Positions 2,458 through 54,338 of a DNA stretch of 57,662 nt are shown piece by piece (the first letter of the stretch is position 1; every line of letters starts with the position of its first letter). Under the pieces are notes generated by a model that was not told the origin of the DNA, did no database searches, and saw nothing but the letters and a program-made list of their open reading frames with translations. Source of the DNA: a virus (lineage: Duplodnaviria; Caudoviricetes); IMG/VR virus record IMGVR_UViG_3300031364_000002, positions 1 through 57,662 of that record; one strand, given 5' to 3'. The translations under genes were made by a program, and so were the position numbers.

Positions 2458-2805
2458 AATTTCCTCCTTTCTTTAATAGCTGCATATTCATTTTCTTTAA
2501 GCGCTTTCAGATCATTGTCGTCTGGCGTTTCTCCATTTACAAGGGCTAGGACTACAGCCCTGAGACTCCTTGTTGAAGACATATCTAATTTAGGCAATTT
2601 TCCAGCTGCCTCGATTGCCGCTTTTCCGTCTTCTATTGTTTTATCTGTTTTTTTTTGCTATGGCACCCTCTGTCAATGTATAGTCATTAGGGTTTTCTTT
2701 CTGATCATCCGTTAGTTCTAATTCAATTGTGTCAATATCAACCGGTTTCCCAGAACCAAATTCAATTCCGTTACGTCCCTCCCAAACATAATATTTTTCT
2801 ATCAT
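2454..2805 (-). pseudogene. Tail-fibre-associated protein interrupted by a +1 frameshift in an A9 run
   Basis: ATG 2805 and TGA 2454 both form ATGA overlaps with the neighbours; the frame stops at 2641 unless one A is removed from the run at 2648-2656, which gives 116 aa. Confidence 0.7.
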
Positions 2806-3719
2806 AATTTTATACCTTCAACCTTTAACATCCATTCGTTAGATGCATAAGTAACCGAAAATGATGTGTCGGAAATATACCTAATATAAACTATATAAGA
2901 AGCACCAAATCCAACAGTAAGGCCATTATGAATGGTACCATTACAGTCTTGCCAATTGTTGAGTGTTATATCTGTTGTTGATAAATTATTTCCAGTAGAT
3001 TTAGACGTAAAACGGAGTGTGTCATAATCACTAAACTTATATCCAGAAGATAGCGTTTGCGTTCCACTCGTAGCTGTTCCTGTCCAAATAGTATCCATAG
3101 TTCCACTGGTAATTTTATTATCCACGTAAGTTTTAACCGCATTTTGGCTGGGAACCAAAGTATTGCTTGTGCCTAAATTTGTATTTGTAGATAAATGCGC
3201 CCCATCTAATAAATCAGCATTCATACCTGATCCTGGGCCATCTGTAGTCTCTGTCCATAATTTATACCATTGAGTCCAACCAGATGTTGCTCTATGCCTA
3301 ATATAAATATACCCGGGGTTGTCATTCATCGCATAACATATTTGCGTTCGGTAAGCTTGTGAACTGTAGGGGTGCATTAACGTATAGATGAAAGCCCATT
3401 TGCCCGTAACAGGAAAAGCGGGAGCAGATGTAACCTCATTAGTATCTATATTATAGATGCTGTTTACTGCAATATCATTTAAATCGTTACTGTATTCCTT
3501 GCATTTATCCGTTGTGAAAATTCTCCAAGGTAAATTTGTTAAAGTCGTTGAACCGTTTCCAATTTTGAAAGCTAACTCATCTGAATATCCTGGTATATTG
3601 CTGAATAAATATATCTCTCCGTCGGCTAATACTGAGGCCAAAGAAAGAGGAGTGCTGACCCCTGTTATTGTCCCCCAGTCTATAACGCTAAAAATTGGTC
3701 TTCTTTCTTCTGTAGACAT
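2802..3719 (-). CDS. Tail fibre / receptor-binding protein
   Basis: W..W..LWT..DGPGSGMNADLLDG and SQNAVKTYVD motifs common in tail fibres; end of the tail module. Confidence 0.75.
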   Translation of the reverse strand: MSTEERRPIFSVIDWGTITGVSTPLSLASVLADGEIYLFSNIPGYSDELAFKIGNGSTTLTNLPWRIFTTDKCKEYSNDLNDIAVNSIYNIDTNEVTSAPAFPVTGKWAFIYTLMHPYSSQAYRTQICYAMNDNPGYIYIRHRATSGWTQWYKLWTETTDGPGSGMNADLLDGAHLSTNTNLGTSNTLVPSQNAVKTYVDNKITSGTMDTIWTGTATSGTQTLSSGYKFSDYDTLRFTSKSTGNNLSTTDITLNNWQDCNGTIHNGLTVGFGASYIVYIRYISDTSFSVTYASNEWMLKVEGIKL

Positions 3720-5549
3720 TTACGCAACCTCCGGTCGTTCCCTAATTTCCAATTTATATGTCATTTCTCCCGGGTCAAATTTTATACTAATCACCTGTCC
3801 TCGTATAGTACCAAAATAAGCCCGTCCTTTTTTAGTTGGAACTATTTTATTATATGTAAATTTTACAATATCCGTTGCAGAGGGGGTAAATTCCATAATA
3901 TCCATTGCAGCAGGGGTAAATTTTATTTTTGTTTTAGGATCCTGTTGCTCCTTGGCTGGAATCGATAAATCAACAGTTCCTGTTTCATATAATTCACGGG
4001 TGGGCTGAGCTAATTTTGTTATATGAAGAGGGATTGTATGAAGAGTCCTTACTGTTGATTGATCTTCTGCCCGAATTTCTGCAGCATCATTGGCATTTGA
4101 TTCAGTAATCAACAAACTCTCAATCTTTCCTTCCTCTTCAAAACCATAATTCCTAACTGCCTGTTCCTCATAATCAATATTTTCAACTGATGGGTACTCA
4201 TCAAGACCAAAATTCTCAGCATAATAAACCACCACACGAGAATAATATTTAGTAAAATCCCGATTGGATTCATGCTCAGTTTTTTTTATTTCTTCTGGCT
4301 GAATGGAAAAGGAATCAGTTCTGTTGGGATAATTCACATGTATCGTACTCCGCCCATCCCCTCCAATGTCATAAACAAACTGACGATTAGTTCCGTTCTG
4401 TAAATTCTCAACCCACTCATAAAACTTTTTTTGACTATTCATATAAAGATAAACATTATCAAGATAGGCTTTTTCACTCTCCCATTGGATTGTATTGTAA
4501 TTACTAGCATCATAGGCATATCCTAAATATTTTTCTTTCATAGCTGCCAAAATATCTGCTGGATTTGTTTGTGGCCTAAAAATTGCATCTACAACAATAT
4601 CCTCATAAGTTTCACTGTCCGAATATGTAATATAAAATTCTCCGTTTACAGCATCTTCCAACACAGTAGACAAGACAGTTTCTTCCCCATCCAATATCCC
4701 TCGTACTTCTAAAATGGAGGTGGCATCAGTAGCGAACTTCCATAAAATACTACCTGAAGAGGAAACTGAATCCATCCTGGAGCAAGGAGCACCTTTGATA
4801 AACCCATATCCTTCTGGGATTAGTTCTCCTTCTAGATCCTCATCCATATTCGGATAATCAACTATACTAAATTTTGAAAACGGAATTTTATTATTTTCAT
4901 AGAATCTCTTATCTGTGAATGATATTTTTAATCTTTTTAGAGTAACATTATCAGATGAAACTATTCCAGTATAAAACTCAAGTTCATTTCCATCTTTTGT
5001 CTCAAATAAAACAATCTGGGCCTCAGATCCCGGAACTGGTTCTATAATGAGATCATCCTCTTCCCCGTCAGACGCTACAATTTCCGCAGATGAAGACTGA
5101 AAAGCCATTTTTGATACCTCGAATGGGTCTACCTCTCTTGAAAAAGATGATGGATTTCTTAGTCTAGGCTGGAACTCAACATCGTTAATGTAATGCAATT
5201 TTTTATATGAAAACCCTGTTAATTTTCCCCAAATGCAAAAAGAGGTTGTAGAAAGACTATCAAAAAGAAAATGAACATACAGAGTATAGGCAGAAATATC
5301 ATAATAGAAAGAAGATTCATCAGAAAGACAATCAGCCAAACTTGTCTTTTTAGCATAAGGACTGGAATCTATTCTAACAGAGTTGATAACAATTTTAACA
5401 AGATTCATATATGAGGAATCCCACAATGAATAATAATCAGTATAACTGGCGGGCTTAACTAAAGTGCATTGGTATACCCCTTGACCCTGGGGGAGGAATG
5501 AAAGAGTCTCATCATAAGGTAATGATAATTTTAAGAGGGTGTCAATCAT
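3720..5549 (-). CDS. Tail tip / baseplate hub-like protein
   Basis: 609 aa, acidic, beta-rich; position downstream of the distal tail genes. Confidence 0.6.
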   Translation of the reverse strand: MIDTLLKLSLPYDETLSFLPQGQGVYQCTLVKPASYTDYYSLWDSSYMNLVKIVINSVRIDSSPYAKKTSLADCLSDESSFYYDISAYTLYVHFLFDSLSTTSFCIWGKLTGFSYKKLHYINDVEFQPRLRNPSSFSREVDPFEVSKMAFQSSSAEIVASDGEEDDLIIEPVPGSEAQIVLFETKDGNELEFYTGIVSSDNVTLKRLKISFTDKRFYENNKIPFSKFSIVDYPNMDEDLEGELIPEGYGFIKGAPCSRMDSVSSSGSILWKFATDATSILEVRGILDGEETVLSTVLEDAVNGEFYITYSDSETYEDIVVDAIFRPQTNPADILAAMKEKYLGYAYDASNYNTIQWESEKAYLDNVYLYMNSQKKFYEWVENLQNGTNRQFVYDIGGDGRSTIHVNYPNRTDSFSIQPEEIKKTEHESNRDFTKYYSRVVVYYAENFGLDEYPSVENIDYEEQAVRNYGFEEEGKIESLLITESNANDAAEIRAEDQSTVRTLHTIPLHITKLAQPTRELYETGTVDLSIPAKEQQDPKTKIKFTPAAMDIMEFTPSATDIVKFTYNKIVPTKKGRAYFGTIRGQVISIKFDPGEMTYKLEIRERPEVA

Positions 5550-22988: not shown

Positions 22989-23180
22989 TCATGGTATTTC
23001 CTCCTCAATACAGGGGAGTTCCCAAAAATCACTTATTGCTTCTCTTGTTTCACGATTAAAATCAACACAGGCCTCTCTCACTTTTTTTGAATTGCTTGGA
23101 TATTCTCTAGTTCTCCGACAAAATTTTTCCAAACTCAGATACAAATTTATCTGTAGCTTCTCAATATTTTCAAATAACAT
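22989..23180 (-). CDS. Hypothetical early protein
   Basis: ORF co-directional with the arm; GGGGG upstream. Confidence 0.5.
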   Translation of the reverse strand: MLFENIEKLQINLYLSLEKFCRRTREYPSNSKKVREACVDFNRETREAISDFWELPCIEEEIP

Positions 23181-23229
23181 TTAAAACCCCCATAATCTAA
23201 AATTAAAAGAGATAGCAGCCAGCATCTAC

Positions 23230-23565
23230 TTAATATTTATCTATTGTTTTCCCATTATCATTCATCAGATAAACCGAACCAGCCGCACAGGCAAGCCTGA
23301 ATTGATCACCCTTATTGTTAGTAAACTCCACCAGAGAAAAATACAGACGATCTTCAACACACCAGGATTTATCAAACATTCTATCAAAATGTTCTGTCAT
23401 GTTGATGGCAGTACCAGTGCCTCCTTCATACCAAAGCATCCCAGTTGCTTTTTCAAAATAATGTTTGTTTGATATGAATGAAGTTATCATCAAGTTTGAA
23501 ATATTCTCAAAATATTTCCATGTTCCAATTTCTTCTTTCCCACAAATTCCAATCTTTAAAACCAT
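23230..23565 (-). CDS. Hypothetical early protein
   Basis: AGGAGG RBS; ends YLMNDNGKTIDKY. Confidence 0.75.
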   Translation of the reverse strand: MVLKIGICGKEEIGTWKYFENISNLMITSFISNKHYFEKATGMLWYEGGTGTAINMTEHFDRMFDKSWCVEDRLYFSLVEFTNNKGDQFRLACAAGSVYLMNDNGKTIDKY

Positions 23566-23727
23566 TTCTTCCTCCTACTACTACTTCTTTATACTGGCTG
23601 CTATCCCAACAATTTGAATTTATATACCAAAACATAAACAATTAGTATTATCAATAAAATAATAATTATACTTTTTTTCTCTCCATTTCGATTATCCGCC
23701 CTCCCCTAAAATTCTTACCGCCTCCAT

Positions 23728-23973
23728 TTAATCTATACATTTTTTTATGAACTGGATTAAATCGACTGAAATGTTTTTGTTTGGATCTATACCAGTTCCG
23801 TTGCATGCTGGACAATCATATACACATTCACATGGATATTCTGAACATTGAGCTTCAGGGTCTTCTAATAAACCACTGCCACCGCATTCAGGGCAATCAT
23901 AGAACCTTTTCTCGACATCATTCTTGTGTGCCTCTTTTATTTTCTGTTCAATCCATTCTCTGGTCATTTTCAT
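23728..23973 (-). CDS. DnaJ-type zinc-finger protein
   Basis: Two CxxCxGxG motifs; GGAGG RBS. Confidence 0.75.
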   Translation of the reverse strand: MKMTREWIEQKIKEAHKNDVEKRFYDCPECGGSGLLEDPEAQCSEYPCECVYDCPACNGTGIDPNKNISVDLIQFIKKCID

Positions 23974-24002
23974 TCCTCCATTAACTGAATATCAAGACGC
24001 TT

Positions 24003-24251
24003 CTATACAGATTTTGGTTCCGGAAGTTCAAGAAAGTCGTGGACTGAGATATATTCATTTGAATGGTTTTTGAAGTATTTATAATAAATTCCAGTCCTTA
24101 CTATTCTTTTTTCTATGTATATGTATACAAATTCACCCCAATTGCGTAAGACGCCACCATAAGCAACACCAAGATTCCTTGCTTTTTTAGAAACGGCTTC
24201 TTTCTCTTCATCCGTAAATGCAAACAGTTTATAGTCCTTCATATTTTCCAC
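24003..24251 (-). CDS. Hypothetical early protein
   Basis: ORF coupled to the upstream gene. Confidence 0.65.
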   Translation of the reverse strand: MENMKDYKLFAFTDEEKEAVSKKARNLGVAYGGVLRNWGEFVYIYIEKRIVRTGIYYKYFKNHSNEYISVHDFLELPEPKSV

Positions 24252-24544
24252 TCCTTGACGATATTAACGATTCCCCAAGCCGCTGTGCTCCGATCTTCTG
24301 GTGTCTCGGCATTATACCAACAATGATAAACGCCTCCATCCATACAACAATCCCCGGTGGTGGCAAGCGGGCAACCAGTACAGGCATACTCAAAAAACAA
24401 CTCACAGAGAGGGCATTTGAGCTCCAAGTCTTTTATTTTTTCATAGAGTATTTTCGGTAATTCATATTTCCTGCGTATCTCTGGATGTTCCGCAAGATAC
24501 GTCCAGACCTCAATAGTTAATTCTTTCGATTCTTTTTCAGTCAT
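24239..24544 (-). CDS. Cys-rich hypothetical protein
   Basis: CPLC...CTGCPL...CC motif; AAGGAG RBS. Confidence 0.7.
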   Translation of the reverse strand: MTEKESKELTIEVWTYLAEHPEIRRKYELPKILYEKIKDLELKCPLCELFFEYACTGCPLATTGDCCMDGGVYHCWYNAETPEDRSTAAWGIVNIVKEWKI

Positions 24545-24547
24545 TCT

Positions 24548-24817
24548 TTACTCCTTGCTCTTATCTTTACGAGCAGCCTCATAGATGCAATCCATCCTCC
24601 ACCCGAACCACTCCTCAACCTGGTCCTTTGACTCCTTTAGATATGATCCAGTTCGTTTTCGATATTCCTTGATTAGTGGTATCTTGATATTATCATTACC
24701 ACTCAGGAGGATATCAACTCCCATCTTTTTCAAATCCTCATATAGACACCTACTGGCTCCGTTCGTTCGATGTGCCTCAATAACCACCTCAATTCCGAAA
24801 ATGTTTATTGTCATCAT
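24548..24817 (-). CDS. Protein with ribosomal L7/L12 C-terminal-like motif
   Basis: KIPLIKEYRKRTGSYLKESKDQVE resembles the KIxxIKxxRxxTGxxLKEAKxxVE consensus. Confidence 0.65.
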   Translation of the reverse strand: MMTINIFGIEVVIEAHRTNGASRCLYEDLKKMGVDILLSGNDNIKIPLIKEYRKRTGSYLKESKDQVEEWFGWRMDCIYEAARKDKSKE

Positions 24818-25175
24818 TACTCTCCTCTTCTATCCTAATTTGTTCCAACATTTTGTGATAATAAAACTCAAAAACGTTGTCTTGGTACTCAGACCCCTCA
24901 TGACGCCAACCACCATCCAATCCAAAATAAAACACAGTGATTCCATCAAACCCTAACCAATAAGAATATTCCCCAGAACCAACCTTATAGGATAACCCCC
25001 CATTCCATGAGTCACATTGGAGAAAAGTTCCCTCATCAGGAAATCTAAATATTTCCCATGAGCCATGTTTCTTGGGGAAACTATTACAATTCTCACGGAA
25101 TAGATCCCGCAATTTGCGTTCTGATTCCGTAATGTGTGCTCGGCAAGACCCCATCTGTGCTTCTTTTTCAGTCAT
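24789..25175 (-). CDS. Hypothetical early protein
   Basis: GAGGA RBS; ORF. Confidence 0.7.
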   Translation of the reverse strand: MTEKEAQMGSCRAHITESERKLRDLFRENCNSFPKKHGSWEIFRFPDEGTFLQCDSWNGGLSYKVGSGEYSYWLGFDGITVFYFGLDGGWRHEGSEYQDNVFEFYYHKMLEQIRIEEESNDDNKHFRN

Positions 25176-25197
25176 TTTTCTATCCTCTCAGGTTTTC

Positions 25198-25470
25198 TCA
25201 GCTGGGTGAATTTTCTTTATATCCTAAACAGCGGGAACAATCAGAACAGTGGAAACAATCAGAACAGTGGAAACAGCGGAAACAGCGGGAACAGTCAAAA
25301 CAACAGGAACAGCGGAAACAGTGGAAACAGCGGAAACAGCGGGAACAGTCACAGCAATTAGAGCAATTGATCATAGTTTTAGACAATTCTACTGCCTCTG
25401 TTTTCGTGAATTTATCACAGTCCCATTTATTATTATTTTTATCAGTCCAATACCCATCAATTTTTTTCAT
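25198..25470 (-). CDS. Cxx-repeat protein encoded by a 9-bp tandem repeat
   Basis: (CxxCxx)n array at ~25225-25366; start MKKIDG after GAGGAG. The plus-strand ORFs here are shadows of the repeat. Confidence 0.75.
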   Translation of the reverse strand: MKKIDGYWTDKNNNKWDCDKFTKTEAVELSKTMINCSNCCDCSRCFRCFHCFRCSCCFDCSRCFRCFHCSDCFHCSDCSRCLGYKENSPS

Positions 25471-25542
25471 CTCTTTTCTCCTCTTGCCGGACTCGTGATC
25501 GGCGCTGTTGTTTAATGCCGCTATGGCGGCATATGTCATCTA
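25471..25542 (-). ncRNA. Intergenic structured module M4
   Basis: TAGATGAC-ATATGCCGC-CATA-GCGGCAT-TAAAC, second hairpin GCCG..CACGAGT.CCGGC, then RBS; shares blocks with M3 and M5. Confidence 0.55.
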
Positions 25543-25860
25543 ATACCTGCCTAATTGAGCGTCTCTCAAAAGTTTTGATTCCTCTCCTGGTCGGTGCTCT
25601 AATAACCGATCATACAGATTCCTGCCTTTTACCAGTTTTCCACAAACGCTGAACGTATGCTGACCTGTTTTGTCTCCATAATGACTCGATAAAACAAATC
25701 CTTCAATTATCTCATTGGTGGATTTATCTACATACTTGACATAGCACCCTTCTCTGATAGGCCCGTTTGATTGTATAAAATCAAATTTTTCTTCGGCTTC
25801 TCTCATTTTCTCAGCATATGCGGCTTTCTGTGCCTTGTTTGGTTTCCATCTGTATGACAT
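25540..25860 (-). CDS. Hypothetical early protein
   Basis: AGGAGGAG RBS; ORF. Confidence 0.75.
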   Translation of the reverse strand: MSYRWKPNKAQKAAYAEKMREAEEKFDFIQSNGPIREGCYVKYVDKSTNEIIEGFVLSSHYGDKTGQHTFSVCGKLVKGRNLYDRLLEHRPGEESKLLRDAQLGRY

Positions 25861-25933
25861 CGTTTTTCTCCTCCTGGCCTGGCTTCAGGCTGGCTATGCA
25901 GTTTAATGCCGCCGGAGCGGCATCCGTCATCTA
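25861..25933 (-). ncRNA. Intergenic structured module M3
   Basis: TAGATGAC-GGATGCCGC-TCCG-GCGGCAT-TAAAC...AGGCCAGGAGGAGAAAAA; shares blocks with M1, M4 and M6. Confidence 0.55.
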
Positions 25934-26353
25934 AATACGAGGAATGTATTTTTGGCCAACAACACTCGACGCGTTCTTCCCTATCAGTCCGAGCTGACGA
26001 AGCCGGAGTGCAACCCGATGATTTATCTCAAATGGGCCGCTTAACCCGGCCCTTACAGCACCGAGCTTGTCAACCTTTATCCCTAACGATCCCAGAAAGG
26101 CTACGAAATTCAGATACCTGTATTCCCGGAAGTCCTTGCTATACGTGCAGGCGTAAAATGAAAAACGCCTGTTTCCGCTTGGACGGGAAATACTTTCAAG
26201 GCGGCAAATCATGCGCCCAGACGACACAGCGTCAATCCACCGTCGGGCGTCCTTCAGGAACGTCTCTCTATCGTAGTACTCCTCTGCGTTTACGAGTTTT
26301 TCAATTTCCGCTTCTTGCGCGTCGGTAAGATCGCACCTAATTTTGTATGACAT
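25931..26353 (-). CDS. Hypothetical early protein
   Basis: Start MSYKIR after AGGAGGAGATTAGAT. Confidence 0.75.
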   Translation of the reverse strand: MSYKIRCDLTDAQEAEIEKLVNAEEYYDRETFLKDARRWIDAVSSGRMICRLESISRPSGNRRFSFYACTYSKDFREYRYLNFVAFLGSLGIKVDKLGAVRAGLSGPFEINHRVALRLRQLGLIGKNASSVVGQKYIPRI

Positions 26354-26463
26354 ATCTAATCTCCTCCTTTGACTGTATAGAGACAGTGCCATGGCACAAC
26401 TAAATCACCAGGAGGGCCAAAGGCGTGCAATCCTGTTGGTTCCTCCTGAGTGTGGATGACTGA

Positions 26464-27162
26464 TTATACAACTTCAAGCGGTGTCAGGTTGGTATACGCA
26501 GTTTTCCCATTACTGTACTCCACCGAGTGACCAGATACTTGGCATTTAAATATTACTTTTTTTGCCAACAGTAATTGTGAGCCATCCGGGAATACTGCTT
26601 CCTTCGCCTTATCGATGGATCTGTAAACATAATAACCGCCACCGTGGTCATCAGCCGCTCTCTGCGTCATCCGCTTCCCGGGGATATATTCTGTTTCCCC
26701 GTCGTAGATGGAGTAAAATTTTCCCCCTACCGTGGCTACCTGTTTGTAAGCAATTTTGCTACTACTGGCAGAGGTTTTGATTTTGATTTGTTTAGACCCA
26801 TCGATGACTGCAATAATGTCGCCTACCTCGTCAACTGTTTTGGCGAGTTTTACAATGCGCGGTTTCCAGCTGTCTAGTTTCTCAACCACAGCAGTTTTGC
26901 TGTTGATCCGCTTGCGATCAATACGGTAATACGATTTTCGAGGGTGATTTCCGTATTTGTCACACTCCGTTTCTCTCTGCTGTACAATTACAGTGTTTTT
27001 TGTAACATCGTAAATACTGTAATTCAACGCTGATCCGCGATGTTTCTGGTCAACGTCGCAGTATTCGTGCGGTAACTGTCCACTCTTAAGCGCGAGGGAC
27101 AAAATCGCCCTTCCTTCATTGGCGCCATCGCCTGTTAATTCCCCGTAGTATCCTCTGGTCAT
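26464..27162 (-). CDS. Hypothetical early protein
   Basis: GGAGG RBS; directly downstream of the hammerhead. Confidence 0.75.
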   Translation of the reverse strand: MTRGYYGELTGDGANEGRAILSLALKSGQLPHEYCDVDQKHRGSALNYSIYDVTKNTVIVQQRETECDKYGNHPRKSYYRIDRKRINSKTAVVEKLDSWKPRIVKLAKTVDEVGDIIAVIDGSKQIKIKTSASSSKIAYKQVATVGGKFYSIYDGETEYIPGKRMTQRAADDHGGGYYVYRSIDKAKEAVFPDGSQLLLAKKVIFKCQVSGHSVEYSNGKTAYTNLTPLEVV

Positions 27163-27190
27163 AATTGACCTCCATGAGATAATTTGTTTC

Positions 27191-27253
27191 TGGCCTGCCT
27201 TATCAATGCCGTGCGGCCATTCACGGCAGACGCCGGTTATCCGGCGTTTCGGC
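27191..27253 (-). ncRNA. Type II hammerhead ribozyme (U3-A8 core variant, loop I/3'-tail pseudoknot); module M1
   Basis: GCC-GAAA-CGCCGG(ATAA)CCGGCG-TC-TGCCGTG(AATGGCCG)CACGGCA-TTGATAA-GGC-AGGCCA: all three stems pair perfectly, GUC cleavage triplet, loop TGGCC complementary to tail GGCCA. Confidence 0.88.
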
Positions 27254-27259
27254 TATTAC

Positions 27260-27451
27260 TTACTGTCTACAAAACTCACTCCACAGATCAGGTGTATCCA
27301 GCTTGTTGCCGTCATCATCAAACAAACCGCCGCCGACTCCGCTTGTGTGAGATCTAAAATCGACGCGAATTTCCGGATGGTTTTTTCCAACATACGCCAC
27401 AAATTCCTGGCCGTATCCGTTACAATTGTCTTCTAAAATAACTAATGTCAT
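27260..27451 (-). CDS. First gene of the left early arm, hypothetical
   Basis: Start codon and RBS lie within repeat B. Confidence 0.75.
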   Translation of the reverse strand: MTLVILEDNCNGYGQEFVAYVGKNHPEIRVDFRSHTSGVGGGLFDDDGNKLDTPDLWSEFCRQ

Positions 27452-27546
27452 CTCTAATCTCCTTTTCCTTAACCTTATATAGGTATTATATACCTACTCT
27501 AAATAAAAAGCAAGAGAATATTTGACTATTTTTAAAAAAAATTATA
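27446..27546 (-). repeat. Repeat B, copy 1 (101 bp, perfect inverted copy of 53124-53224)
   Basis: Manual alignment, no mismatch; contains promoter, palindrome, RBS and ATG. Confidence 0.95.
27485..27513 (-). promoter_or_regulatory. Sigma70-type early promoter, left arm
   Basis: TTGCTT-N17-TATAAT, with the palindrome TAGGTAT-ATA-ATACCTA over the -10. Confidence 0.85.
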
Positions 27547-27573
27547 GACTTTTAGAAATAGCGGGATTATACT
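27522..27573 (+). promoter_or_regulatory. Tandem rightward promoters for the replication operon
   Basis: TTGACT(27522)-N17-TAGACT(27545)-N17-TATACT(27568). Confidence 0.55.
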
Positions 27574-27588
27574 AATCAAGAAAAGTCA

Positions 27589-27745
27589 GGGGGACTAAAA
27601 ACAGGAGGGGAGAAGAAATCCAAACTAAAAAATGGCCTCCAATGGGATGGCCCCACAACAGTCTTTGGTCTGGATTCTTCTTTCTGTCCCCCAGAATAAT
27701 GAATTTATCCTTCTGTTGTGGAGCTTTTCAATTGGAGGCTTTTTT
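27589..27745 (+). promoter_or_regulatory. Structured leader / candidate attenuator
   Basis: Two long competing helices; the second buries the GGAGG RBS and ends in a U run. Confidence 0.55.
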
Positions 27746-28057
27746 ATGTCCTATCTAATAAATGCTATCAGCCCTTGTGGAAACTGGATACTTAACAAAA
27801 AACTAACTCAGGAAGTTGGGGCTGAAGCAGCCCTCATAATGACTGAATTAAGCAACCCCAATGAAACCATGAAGGAAACCCCTATCCAGAAAATTCTATC
27901 CATCAGAATTGGTATCTCAGAAGAAAAAGTAATTTTCCTCATCAAGAATCTTGTCAATAAAAAATTACTAACCTGGGATCAAAAAGCTGAAAAGATATGG
28001 GTAAACGTAGAAAAACTTGATACTTTACTATCTGGAGATGATTATGAAGATGCCTAA
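27746..28057 (+). CDS. Small winged-helix-like protein
   Basis: Start MSYLIN after GGAGG; NKKL..EVG.EAALI..EL resembles the N-terminus of the next gene. Confidence 0.6.
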   Translation: MSYLINAISPCGNWILNKKLTQEVGAEAALIMTELSNPNETMKETPIQKILSIRIGISEEKVIFLIKNLVNKKLLTWDQKAEKIWVNVEKLDTLLSGDDYEDA

Positions 28058-30355: not shown

Positions 30356-31297
30356 ATGAGTTTTGATGCTTATCAATTTTTAAACGATTTTCATATTGAT
30401 TATACAGATTCTGGACCCCATTCCTCCCATGGATGGGTCAATATTAATTGCCCCTATCCAGGGTGTAAAGATGATAATTATCATGGGGGATTCAATCTTC
30501 AGGAAGGATATTATCATTGTTGGAAATGTGGTGGGCACCCTCTTGATAAAATAATTCATTTTTTGTTAGGAGTGAAATATGAGGAAGCGGAAAGAATAAA
30601 ATGGCAGTACACAGGTCGTTTTCTCCAATTAAAAATCCTCAATAAAAAGATAAAATCTGTTTCCTCCATTGAGTTACCTGGAGAGAAATTAGGAAAAAAA
30701 CATAGAGAATATTTGAGATCTAGGGGATTTTCCCCTCAGAAAATTGAGCAGTTGTATCATATATCAGGAACAAATTGGGCATCCGCTGGGTTTAAAAACA
30801 GAATTATAATCCCTGTTTTCTCCCACGGAAAATTAGTCTCTTATCTTGGACGGGACATTACAGGAGAAAACCCCCTTCGTTACAAAGGTTTGTCTCCGGA
30901 GGAAAGCATAATTCACTACAAAAGACTATTATATGGATTTGATGAATGTATTTCTTCGTTGGGTGGATTAGTTGAGGGGCCTTTTGATCAGTGGCGAATG
31001 GGCCCGGGGTTCGTTTGTAGTTTTGGTACAGCTCTAACAGAATATCAAATTAAGTTATTGAGTAGTTTTGATAAACTTTTTATTCTGTTTGACCCTGAAC
31101 CTTTTACTCAAAGGAAAGTAAAAAAATTAGCTTCCAGGTTGGCCTCATTAGGTACCAAAGTTGAGTTAATTCAGTGGGGAAATGATAAAGATCCCGCAGA
31201 ATTTAGTGAAACTGAAGCAAAGGAAATTAGAAATGATTTAGGATTTACGAGAGTATACAAGCCCTTACAAATTTCAGGTTTGAGGGGAAAAAGATGA
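30356..31297 (+). CDS. DNA primase (zinc finger + TOPRIM)
   Basis: CP..C...HCWKCG; RIIIP; VEGPFD; FDPE; KDP motifs. Confidence 0.9.
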   Translation: MSFDAYQFLNDFHIDYTDSGPHSSHGWVNINCPYPGCKDDNYHGGFNLQEGYYHCWKCGGHPLDKIIHFLLGVKYEEAERIKWQYTGRFLQLKILNKKIKSVSSIELPGEKLGKKHREYLRSRGFSPQKIEQLYHISGTNWASAGFKNRIIIPVFSHGKLVSYLGRDITGENPLRYKGLSPEESIIHYKRLLYGFDECISSLGGLVEGPFDQWRMGPGFVCSFGTALTEYQIKLLSSFDKLFILFDPEPFTQRKVKKLASRLASLGTKVELIQWGNDKDPAEFSETEAKEIRNDLGFTRVYKPLQISGLRGKR

Positions 31298-53128: not shown

Positions 53129-53224
53129 TTTTTTTTAAAAATAGTCAAATATTCTCTTGCTTTTTATTTAGAGTAGGTATATAATACCTATATAAGGTTA
53201 AGGAAAAGGAGATTAGAGATGACA
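53124..53224 (+). repeat. Repeat B, copy 2
   Basis: Perfect reverse complement of 27446-27546. Confidence 0.95.
53157..53185 (+). promoter_or_regulatory. Sigma70-type early promoter, right arm
   Basis: TTGCTT-N17-TATAAT; palindrome at 53174-53190. Confidence 0.85.
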
Positions 53225-53527
53225 ATAGCCCTAGTACATACGCAGTATGACAACAAACACCTTGACGAGGTAAAAAACCTAATGATGTCATTAGGCACGC
53301 CTATTATACATGCCGTATGGATGGAGTGCTATCAAATGTATGCAGCTCTCGACGGATGCCATAGGCTGAGAGCAGCTCAGATGCTTGGCATTACTCCTAT
53401 TATAGAGGAGGTAGAGTATAGCGATGACATGGCCTCTACCGTTACAGGATACGATGGCGACGATGATTATATGATCTCAGAGATTTGTGATGATTGTATC
53501 AAATCATCAATCCTATATTTCAAATAA
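53219..53527 (+). CDS. ParB/Srx-like small protein, first gene of the right arm
   Basis: P.I......ALDGCHRL.AA..LG motif. Confidence 0.7.
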   Translation: MTIALVHTQYDNKHLDEVKNLMMSLGTPIIHAVWMECYQMYAALDGCHRLRAAQMLGITPIIEEVEYSDDMASTVTGYDGDDDYMISEICDDCIKSSILYFK

Positions 53528-53597
53528 GCCGAAACGCCGGAGAGATCCGGCGGTAAACGACAATGTCGGGCACAAGTCCGACAGGAGGAGATTAGAG
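53528..53597 (+). ncRNA. Intergenic module M5 (5' half of hammerhead plus M4-like hairpin)
   Basis: GCCGAAACGCCGG...CCGGCG identical to M1, then TAAAC..TGTCGG-GCACAAGT-CCGACA and RBS. Confidence 0.6.
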
Positions 53598-54338
53598 ATG
53601 GAACAAAAATTAATTTTTGTTGATGTTGTAAATGACTCAATTACTCTAAAATGTATGCCTGTTTTAGATCCTGATTTTACAACATTGGCCACCACGATCT
53701 GTTCGAAAGCCAAGACAACTTACAGCGTTTGTACTATGTTGTCTTGGCAATATAATATGGCGTGGTGGCAAAGCTTGTATAATAGAGTTTTCTATTTTGG
53801 GGGAGTTCCTGAAACGGAAAAAAATAAAGCTATTTTTACATCATTTTTTGAAACGCAATATTATCCTATAGATTTTTTAAATAGCGAAACACCCACTATT
53901 GTATCTCAATTTTTTAGGACTATGCAAGCGATTCAGTACGGCAATCTTGACCTGTATCAACAAAGATTAATCATGGTTAAAGTTGATGAGTCTTTACTGG
54001 ATGAACACCTGGTGATATCCTCGGTTGGATATCATGGAGAAGAAGTTATTTGTGAGGAAGACGATATATGCAAACCTGACGAGTTTGACGTATTTAATAC
54101 AAGATTGGAGGGGGTTTACTATACCTATGATAGATTCCCTTTTTCCCCTCAAATTAATTTAAAGGCTCCTGCTAATGGGGTTCTTAAATTTTGGAAAAGC
54201 ATAATCCTGAAGGAGTATAATAATTACTATGGCCATACGGCTACTATTCTTTTTGGGGATGGGTACAGCATATTAAATACATTTTTAAAAAAGAGGAGGA
54301 AAGAAATAAATTTTGAAGAATATAGCTTTGTAAAATGA
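53598..54338 (+). CDS. Hypothetical protein
   Basis: Start MEQKLI after AGGAGGAGATTAGAG. Confidence 0.75.
   Translation: MEQKLIFVDVVNDSITLKCMPVLDPDFTTLATTICSKAKTTYSVCTMLSWQYNMAWWQSLYNRVFYFGGVPETEKNKAIFTSFFETQYYPIDFLNSETPTIVSQFFRTMQAIQYGNLDLYQQRLIMVKVDESLLDEHLVISSVGYHGEEVICEEDDICKPDEFDVFNTRLEGVYYTYDRFPFSPQINLKAPANGVLKFWKSIILKEYNNYYGHTATILFGDGYSILNTFLKKRRKEINFEEYSFVK

Follow-up and report, generated by a model that had tools for sequence, protein, structure and literature searches.

A type II hammerhead ribozyme with a natural U3-A8 core, proposed as portable 5' leader of an uncultured phage gene

What does a hammerhead ribozyme do between two small genes of a phage, and to which of the two does it belong? 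The question is raised by positions 27189-27254 (minus strand) of IMGVR_UViG_3300031364_000002, a 57,662-base virus record of IMG/VR (linear, completeness estimate 88%, from an uncultured tailed phage), which was analysed at full length and is referred to below as the window. Our reading, which we consider probable, is of a true type II hammerhead whose core bears the natural U3-A8 variant and which is predicted to cut the leftward RNA and to serve as a portable 5' leader of the gene downstream of it, which encodes a protein of 232 amino acids (aa). The U3-A8 core, the pseudoknot and the intergenic setting in phages have all been in print since 2011, and the locus is a new copy, not a new kind of core. 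What is new here are a hammerhead-gene-twister unit on a metagenome contig (L207), a hammerhead/twister hybrid elsewhere in the window, and a census of core positions 3 and 8 in 76 hammerheads.

Score, fold and core of the ribozyme

The first step is to ask whether the element is a hammerhead at all. The Rfam model Hammerhead_II (RF02276) matches the minus strand from 27254 to 27189 along all of its 66 positions (1-66), scoring 47.8 bits where the gathering score is 37, and it is the sole Rfam family above threshold in the window. This bears out an earlier sequence-only reading of the same DNA, which had proposed a complete type II hammerhead here and every one of whose quoted minus-strand letters is found in the sequence. 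The E-value is 7.5e-8 when the search is confined to 23000-27650 and 2.2e-10 in a single-genome search; besides the hammerhead, the rows returned for 23000-27650 from all of Rfam at E<=10 were implausible eukaryotic small nucleolar and long non-coding RNAs, far under their cut-offs. Folding of the 66 nucleotides (nt) to minimum free energy (MFE) yields a three-way junction with 3 base pairs (bp) in stem II, 7 bp in stem III and 7 bp in stem I at -27.3 kcal/mol, a stability reached by 2 of 200 shuffled sequences. Both the MFE fold and the structure line of cmscan have stems I and III capped by loops and stem II open, which is the type II permutation that the sequence-only reading had named.

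That hairpins and short core words should have come together by chance in an intergenic region is so improbable as to be negligible. The element is indeed short, and the z-score of its fold alone is only -2.43, but against this stand an E-value of 9.3e-7 over the whole window (cmscan, both strands, 4227 families), a pseudoknot partner that is present as well, and the conservation of the element on L207 and on the X2 and X3 contigs described below, with changes that preserve its structure. A reading of 27189-27254 as a transcription terminator was also rejected: the span is not in the consensus terminator scan and no T run follows either hairpin.

Sequence, model alignment and fold together place the parts of the ribozyme as follows. 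On the minus strand, the 5' strand of stem II (GCC, 27251-27253) comes first, its G27253, C27252 and C27251 pairing with G27199, G27198 and C27197 of the 3' strand (GGC, 27197-27199). The core letters G12 A13 A14 (27248-27250, aligned to GAA of the model) lead into the stem III hairpin (27230-27247), which runs from A15.1 (27247) to U16.1 (27230) with 7 bp and the loop AUAA. The cleavage triplet is GUC, and by position in the model alignment C17 is 27229, which puts the predicted cut between 27229 and 27228, exactly where it had been expected from the sequence. The stem I hairpin (27207-27228) pairs 27228-27222 with 27213-27207 around the 8-nt loop AAUGGCCG and is followed by the core letters U3 U4 G5 A6 U7 A8 A9 (UUGAUAA, 27200-27206). 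Beyond stem II, the 3' tail GGCCA (27191-27195) is complementary over 5 bp to UGGCC of loop I (27219-27215) and would be its pseudoknot partner, as had been suggested. The catalytic core (U4 G5 A6 N7 A9, G12 A13 A14, A15.1-U16.1 and H17) is intact, with U/A and not C/G at positions 3/8.

How unusual is such a core? According to Perreault et al. 2011 (PMC3088659), type II hammerheads are common in bacteria, and most of them have a pseudoknot of at least 4 bp between loop I and the nucleotides directly after stem II; when it is shortened or mutated, the rate falls 20- to more than 100-fold. The same text describes U3/A8 as a natural covariation and, for the in-vitro activity of variants of this type, cites its ref. 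32, Przybilski & Hammann 2007. This agrees with the sequence-only reading, which had taken U3-A8 for a double change that preserves the 3-8 tertiary pair.

Our census points the same way. A first scan of IMG/VR, in which the stem III/stem I junction was fixed and Y3/R8 allowed, returned 104 stretches, and the listing covered 80 loci with 86 matches; among these listed matches there were 84 C-G, 1 U-G, 1 C-A and 0 U-A. Neither of the single changes survived inspection, as the U-G match (L132) is without the upstream GAAAC and hence not a hammerhead, and the C-A match (L158), in which stem II is likewise absent, is not counted among the 84 real hammerheads. A second scan, which required U3/A8, gave 21 matches in 20 stretches; stem I reached at least 5 bp in 10 of the 21 (L191, L197, L198, L199, L201-L204 and two in L206), and the other matches look like chance. 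In the final parse, all fetched loci together with the window and L207 were read with a general type II regular expression that required three stems and allowed all four 3/8 combinations. It recovered 76 unique type II hammerheads, 66 with C-G, 10 with U-A (a share inflated by the U3/A8-only scan), 0 with U-G and 0 with C-A. Several of the U-A and C-G copies came from the flanks of the loci, independent of the scan patterns, and no single 3/8 change passed. Because positions 3 and 8 covary strictly in relatives, the tertiary pair, and hence catalysis, would be expected to be under selection.

The pseudoknot was approached in a similar manner. Across the 76 hammerheads, the longest complement between loop I and the tail has a mean of 4.21 bp, compared with 3.41 +/- 0.08 when the tails are shuffled (maximum 3.68 in 1000 shuffles), a comparison that carries no probability value because the census sequences are related. 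Family-wide covariation of loop and tail thus supports the predicted pairing in the window.

Set beside the family as a whole, the window copy is ordinary in most respects. It shares with Hammerhead_II the full-length score, the open stem II of 3 bp, the capped stems I and III, the GUC triplet, the pseudoknot and an intergenic site on the strand of its neighbours; it departs from the usual CUGAUGA in its core UUGAUAA, a minority state. With the U3-A8 hammerheads of the census (L191, L197, L198/L201-L204 and L199/L206), several of which lie directly 3' of stop codons, it has the double 3/8 change, the type II layout and the pseudoknot in common, whereas their stems, loops and neighbouring genes are different and none of them is close to the window copy. 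Some of the phage contigs in IMG/VR that carry them (L198, L201-L204, L199/L206) bear two to three U3-A8 type II hammerheads, and L198 and L202 have canonical C3-G8 hammerheads in addition, so that both core states are found in one genome. Taken alone, the element is one more example in a family of thousands and a clean case, provided by nature, in which the 3-8 tertiary pair can be tested.

Linkage to the 232-aa gene and the proposed leader role

The hammerhead fills a 97-nt gap between two open reading frames (ORFs) of the minus strand and is sense to both. Upstream lies an ORF of 63 aa and no known family (27260-27451, stop codon 27262-27260), and the ribozyme starts 5 nt past its stop, in keeping with the sequence-only reading, which had placed the element just after this gene. 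Downstream lies the 232-aa ORF (26464-27162, ATG at 27162), whose ribosome-binding site GGAGG (27169-27173, read from the sequence) is 15 nt past the last base of the ribozyme.

Which of these neighbours the ribozyme goes with can be judged from other contigs. L207, of 11,808 bases, carries both the ribozyme and the 232-aa gene, its positions 4643-5438 being equivalent to window 26462-27257 with 96.1% identity over 796 nt (blastn). The block of homology extends from 3 nt ahead of the hammerhead to 2 nt past the stop of the gene, with no adjoining match on either side, and elsewhere L207 and the window have scattered, rearranged matches only. The L207 hammerhead (5370-5435, minus strand) scores 46.8 bits and keeps the core UUGAUAA; its differences are two letters of loop III (loop UUAU) and a C-to-U change at 27208, by which a G-C pair of stem I becomes G-U. 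An X2 contig matches 26462-27257 and nothing else, and among its 31 differences the G-U change at 27208 is the sole one in the ribozyme. One X3 contig has the ribozyme (27190-27254) behind another 5' flank, with two inserted letters that, read by eye, make an extra A-U pair in stem III and a GUAA loop. In a second X3 contig the match covers the end of the 63-aa ORF and stops at 27260, after which a loose end of 30 letters resembles the 5' half of the L207 twister ribozyme discussed below; the X3 contigs have a low depth (2-3), and 30 letters of each loose end were shown. Taken together, these contigs tie the ribozyme to the downstream 232-aa gene rather than to the upstream 63-aa gene. The natural variants also keep the hammerhead structure, given the G-U pair in stem I, the added A-U pair and the retained UUGAUAA.

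Since the ribozyme and the 232-aa gene move as one block between differing contexts, a role as portable leader is the most likely one. It could work as follows. A transcript starting from a promoter-like site in the divergent intergenic region (TTGCTT-17 nt-TATAAT, 27485-27513, minus strand, read by eye) would run leftward through the element, with the 63-aa ORF as its first cistron. Once the polymerase had moved past 27189, the ribozyme could fold; stems I, II and III would form, and the pseudoknot of loop I with the 3' tail would keep stems I and II side by side. The 2'-OH of C17 would then attack its own 3' phosphate and break the chain between 27229 and 27228. The upstream RNA with the 63-aa cistron would end in the GC-rich stem III hairpin and a 2',3'-cyclic phosphate, and the downstream RNA would begin, 54 nt before the ribosome-binding site of the 232-aa gene, with a 5'-OH and the hairpin of stem I. 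In this way the ribozyme might give its cargo gene a constant mRNA 5' end, and with it a constant stability and setting for translation, whatever the place at which the cassette inserts. The separation of the upstream cistron from the rest of the arm, which the sequence-only reading had put forward, would follow from the same cut.

Such a role would resemble that of the RiboJ-type engineered insulators, in which a hammerhead-type 5' leader likewise fixes the 5' end of the mRNA. RiboJ, on the other hand, is a synthetic construct derived from a plant satellite RNA, and insulation by the window element is a proposal.

The published record on natural copies is compatible with a position at gene borders. 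Type II hammerheads are known between phage genes and often flank prophage genes, "implying" that long phage transcripts get processed, as proposed, to mRNAs the length of a gene (PMC3088659), and three of them beside phage-derived genes cleave in RNA of Desulfovibrio vulgaris (Olzog et al. 2021, PMC8782182). A 2019 review takes up the processing idea again and considers the function of ribozymes in bacteria "largely elusive" (PMC6765202). The window copy shares with the prophage and the D. vulgaris hammerheads a place at gene boundaries in phage-derived DNA; unlike the gene-flanking hammerheads of prophages, it is a single intact hammerhead with no flanking pair, and its partner on L207 is a twister. 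In titles and abstracts within an open-access collection we found nothing relevant on ribozymes at phage mosaic joints, on hammerhead/twister hybrids or on U3-A8, the single paper returned for the last being about Penelope-like elements.

That partner is a full Twister-P5 (RF02684) at 4588-4643 (minus strand) of L207, right after the stop of the 232-aa gene; it scores 58.8 bits (gathering score 37.6) with an E-value of 2.1e-10. Further 3' follows a homologue of a Cys-rich ORF of the window (25198-25539). On L207 the gene is thus bracketed by two ribozyme classes. In the window, the same place behind the gene is taken by two extra ORFs and holds no Rfam ribozyme match.

A hammerhead and a twister around a single gene could be the two ends of a unit of RNA excision and ligation, from which a monocistronic RNA would be released with a 5'-OH and a 2',3'-cyclic phosphate, the ends that RtcB uses, and could be circularised by a host ligase of this type. 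We judge this to be very unlikely. The bracketing on L207, with good scores for both ribozymes and the twister directly after the stop, is what speaks for it. In the window there is no ribozyme 3' of the 232-aa gene, the homology to L207 ends at 26462, and cmscan found nothing else credible in 23000-27650. As for earlier data, Perreault et al. 2011 raise spliced or circular products as a possibility and report that they were not detectable (PMC3088659).

Twister traces and homology breakpoints

If the hammerhead is a leader of one cassette, are there traces of it elsewhere in the genome? At E<=1 the window has just one further RNA match, to Twister-P5 (53530-53581, plus strand), with 26.2 bits against 37.6 and an E-value of 0.22. 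It falls within a hammerhead/twister hybrid (53528-53583, plus strand), made up of 15 nt of a hammerhead 5' end followed by the 3' part of a twister. The first 15 letters of the hybrid, AGCCGAAACGCCGGA, are also those with which the hammerhead starts (stem II strand, GAA, A15.1 and stem III strand); what follows, when aligned to the L207 twister, is a hairpin capped by GNRA, then GUAAACGACA and another hairpin that has CACAAGU in its loop; by blastn, L207 4560-4635 is 85.9% identical to window 53610-53534. Compared with Twister-P5, the stretch 53530-53581 keeps the hairpin, the UAA and the 3' hairpin. It differs in a score below the cut-off and in five missing model positions of the 5' internal loop, where the letters are those of the hammerhead 5' end, AGCCGAA standing in place of the twister 5' strand. 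Of the 15 initial letters, seven are common with the twister and another seven, AGCCGAA, are hammerhead-specific (the chance of finding them there is about 6e-5 by hand arithmetic).

The hairpin CGCCGG...CCGGCG occurs at only two sites of the window, in the hammerhead and in the hybrid, with 0 expected by chance, and it is also the stem of the L207 twister hairpin. The simplest origin of the hybrid would be that a hammerhead and a twister crossed over inside this common hairpin. It has no part of a hammerhead past stem III, and it is without the twister strand (GUGA in L207, in the 5' strand GUGAGUG) that is complementary to UCAC of the terminal loop. As it lacks both the twister 5' strand and the rest of the hammerhead, it should cleave as neither. 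Its site, between the stop of ORF 53219-53527 and a ribosome-binding site with ATG at 53598, is like the setting of the hammerhead.

A further trace may be present closer to the 232-aa gene. The stretch 25487-25535 (minus strand), within an apparent N-terminal extension of the Cys-rich ORF, aligns with the L207 twister over the hairpin, UUAAAC and another hairpin in which a pair has changed in a compensating way. It has no Rfam match and could be what is left of a twister; translation of the ORF probably begins at ATG 25470 instead. A 16-mer from the twister part was also sought over IMG/VR, and on inspection none of the 20 stretches that it returned was a twister.

These traces bear on a second alternative, namely that the element is a hammerhead by descent that is slow or inactive, kept for its GC-rich hairpins as RNA-stability elements or as a DNA "linker" for phage recombination. 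A hybrid joined inside a hairpin found at just two sites of the window would suit a linker, and so would the homology of L207 and of the X2 and X3 contigs, which breaks off within 3 nt of the ribozyme edge. We looked for the same behaviour in other contigs by comparing hammerheads in pairs with a likeness of 85% or more, taken from different fetched loci and with 200 nt on both sides (86 instances). Neither flank was shared by 161 pairs, both flanks by 20, the downstream flank only by 15 and the upstream flank only by 8, meaning that just one flank is shared in 23 of the 43 pairs that share any. The pairs are non-independent, with 7 downstream-only and 4 upstream-only clusters by hand grouping, and the counts, compatible with ribozymes at mosaic joints, cover ribozyme-bearing gaps only, which limits their weight for a linker role.

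A slow or inactive element would, moreover, sit poorly with what has been preserved. All catalytic core positions are intact, and between copies that are 3.9% apart over 796 nt the changes in the ribozyme amount to loop letters and the G-C to G-U exchange; the strict 3/8 covariation in relatives is expected only under selection on the tertiary pair. A linker role and ribozyme activity are, besides, mutually compatible. As a replacement for the portable-leader reading we hold this alternative to be improbable.

Both functions could also be combined. A tentative idea, which we think rather unlikely, is that in the salt-marsh phage population hammerhead and twister are interchangeable portable junctions between accessory cassettes, cutting the RNA to defined ends and offering the GC-rich hairpin CGCCGG(A)...(U)CCGGCG as microhomology for swaps. 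The L207 hammerhead, gene and twister would then release a single-gene RNA with ligatable ends, and the hybrid at 53528-53583 would be the scar of one swap. In line with this are the breakpoints within 3 nt of ribozyme edges and the alternation behind the 63-aa gene, which is followed by the hammerhead in the window and by letters like the 5' half of a twister (30 of them) on an X3 contig. In this respect the surroundings are more noteworthy than the ribozyme itself: one ribozyme-gene unit is found in two genomic contexts, with a twister closing one of them and a hybrid, apparently dead, lying elsewhere. If ribozymes mark the edges of exchangeable cassettes, the ideas of "processing/insulation" and of a "recombination joint" become directly testable.

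Returning to the portable-leader reading, several points weigh against it. Among 80 terminase-related phage records, Hammerhead_II is found in one (1 of 50 and 0 of 30). The sole match (G004:C1:17783-17846, equal to L082 1501-1564, plus strand) has 40.7 bits and the canonical core CUGAAGA. It is found on a short island of plus-strand genes flanked by blocks of the minus strand, preceded by a 54-aa ORF and followed by one of 175 aa with an N-terminus like that of a signal peptide; Twister-P5, searched in 50 of the 80, gave 0. With so few relatives bearing a hammerhead, and the one that does being non-syntenic, the element is dispensable for the phage lineage. A putatively dead hybrid tolerated at an equivalent site suggests in turn that cutting there is not always needed. 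Linkage to the downstream gene, clear for the window copy, is no family-wide rule, since on other phage contigs homology is lost with similar ease at either edge of the hammerhead (15 downstream-only versus 8 upstream-only pairs). The tolerance of 3/8 exchanges reportedly depends on the surrounding elements, to go by the title given to the 2007 work of Przybilski and Hammann, and the effect of a 5'-OH on the life of an mRNA varies by host, through host RNases. Finally, the runs listed for this stretch, three DNA runs that are all salt-marsh metagenomes, include no RNA run.

Cargo protein and genomic surroundings

What the proposed leader would carry is a protein of few relatives. Only 10 homologues were found among 5.8 billion proteins, none with a Pfam family, and the 232-aa protein itself has no match in Pfam or PHROGs; a peptide-pattern search of IMG/VR for relatives matched 5 stretches, none of which was confirmed. 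An AlphaFold model from an 11-sequence alignment has a mean predicted local distance difference test (pLDDT) score of 71.5, with residues 136-232 mostly above 85, and a Foldseek search of this model against the PDB returned nothing at E<=0.001. In a wide search with VIA-align, residues 132-232 were best matched by 2aua_B (Z 8.3, root-mean-square deviation 2.9, 83 residues aligned). Other matches were the rifampin ADP-ribosyltransferase Arr (Z 6.1), 9ld3_A (Z 5.4), PARP13 (Z 5.0), a diphtheria toxin chain (Z 4.9) and tRNA 2'-phosphotransferase (Z 4.2), with several PARP catalytic domains, ParT and MbcT also among the near chains. Most of these neighbours we take to be proteins of the ADP-ribosyltransferase fold, and at these Z values the weak match of the modelled domain is a lead to such a fold, not an assignment. 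Invariant in the alignment are H173, the GGYY motif (175-178) and the motif S151-I-Y-D-G (151-155).

The genome around this gene has two arms, which diverge from an AT-rich gap of 180 nt (27452-27631). Minus-strand genes fill 590-27451, beginning with about 10 small ORFs that have no assigned function (from 27451 to 23230) and passing into structural and packaging genes, namely small and large terminase, portal, head-morphogenesis protein, major head protein and tape measure; plus-strand genes from 27632 on include a primase, helicases and a DNA polymerase. A megablast search of GenBank phages with 26500-28000 gave no match, hence no close relative in that collection. The sequence-only reading had put the hammerhead just after the first gene of a left early transcript. 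It does follow the 63-aa ORF, for which a place as first gene after a leftward promoter is plausible, given the TATAAT seen by eye with a weak -35; the site from 27513 to 27485 is not listed by a consensus promoter scan, and its -35 fits at 3 of 6 positions only. The word "early" is conjectural, as the arm runs on into terminase, portal and capsid genes.

In and around the divergent region, several contigs end or branch at 27442-27546, where the depth rises from about 13 to 28-44 (in one run, which may be the source). This suggests that the regulatory region is common to several co-occurring phage variants. No tRNA genes were found in the window. On L207, a phage-like contig, positions 2762-2895 (minus strand) give a tRNA match of 44 bits with a 77-nt insertion in the region of the anticodon arm, which may be an intron-containing tRNA gene.

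Lastly, a translation-start box, GGAGATTAGA[G/T]ATG, stands in identical form before four small genes of both arms (27449-27462 and 26351-26364 on the minus strand, 53208-53221 and 53587-53600 on the plus strand). Together with a copy that has one mismatch (31222-31235, plus strand), these four exact copies compare with 0.15 expected. Going by the box, the true starts of two ORFs would be 26353 (listed from 26392) and 53598 (listed from 53487).

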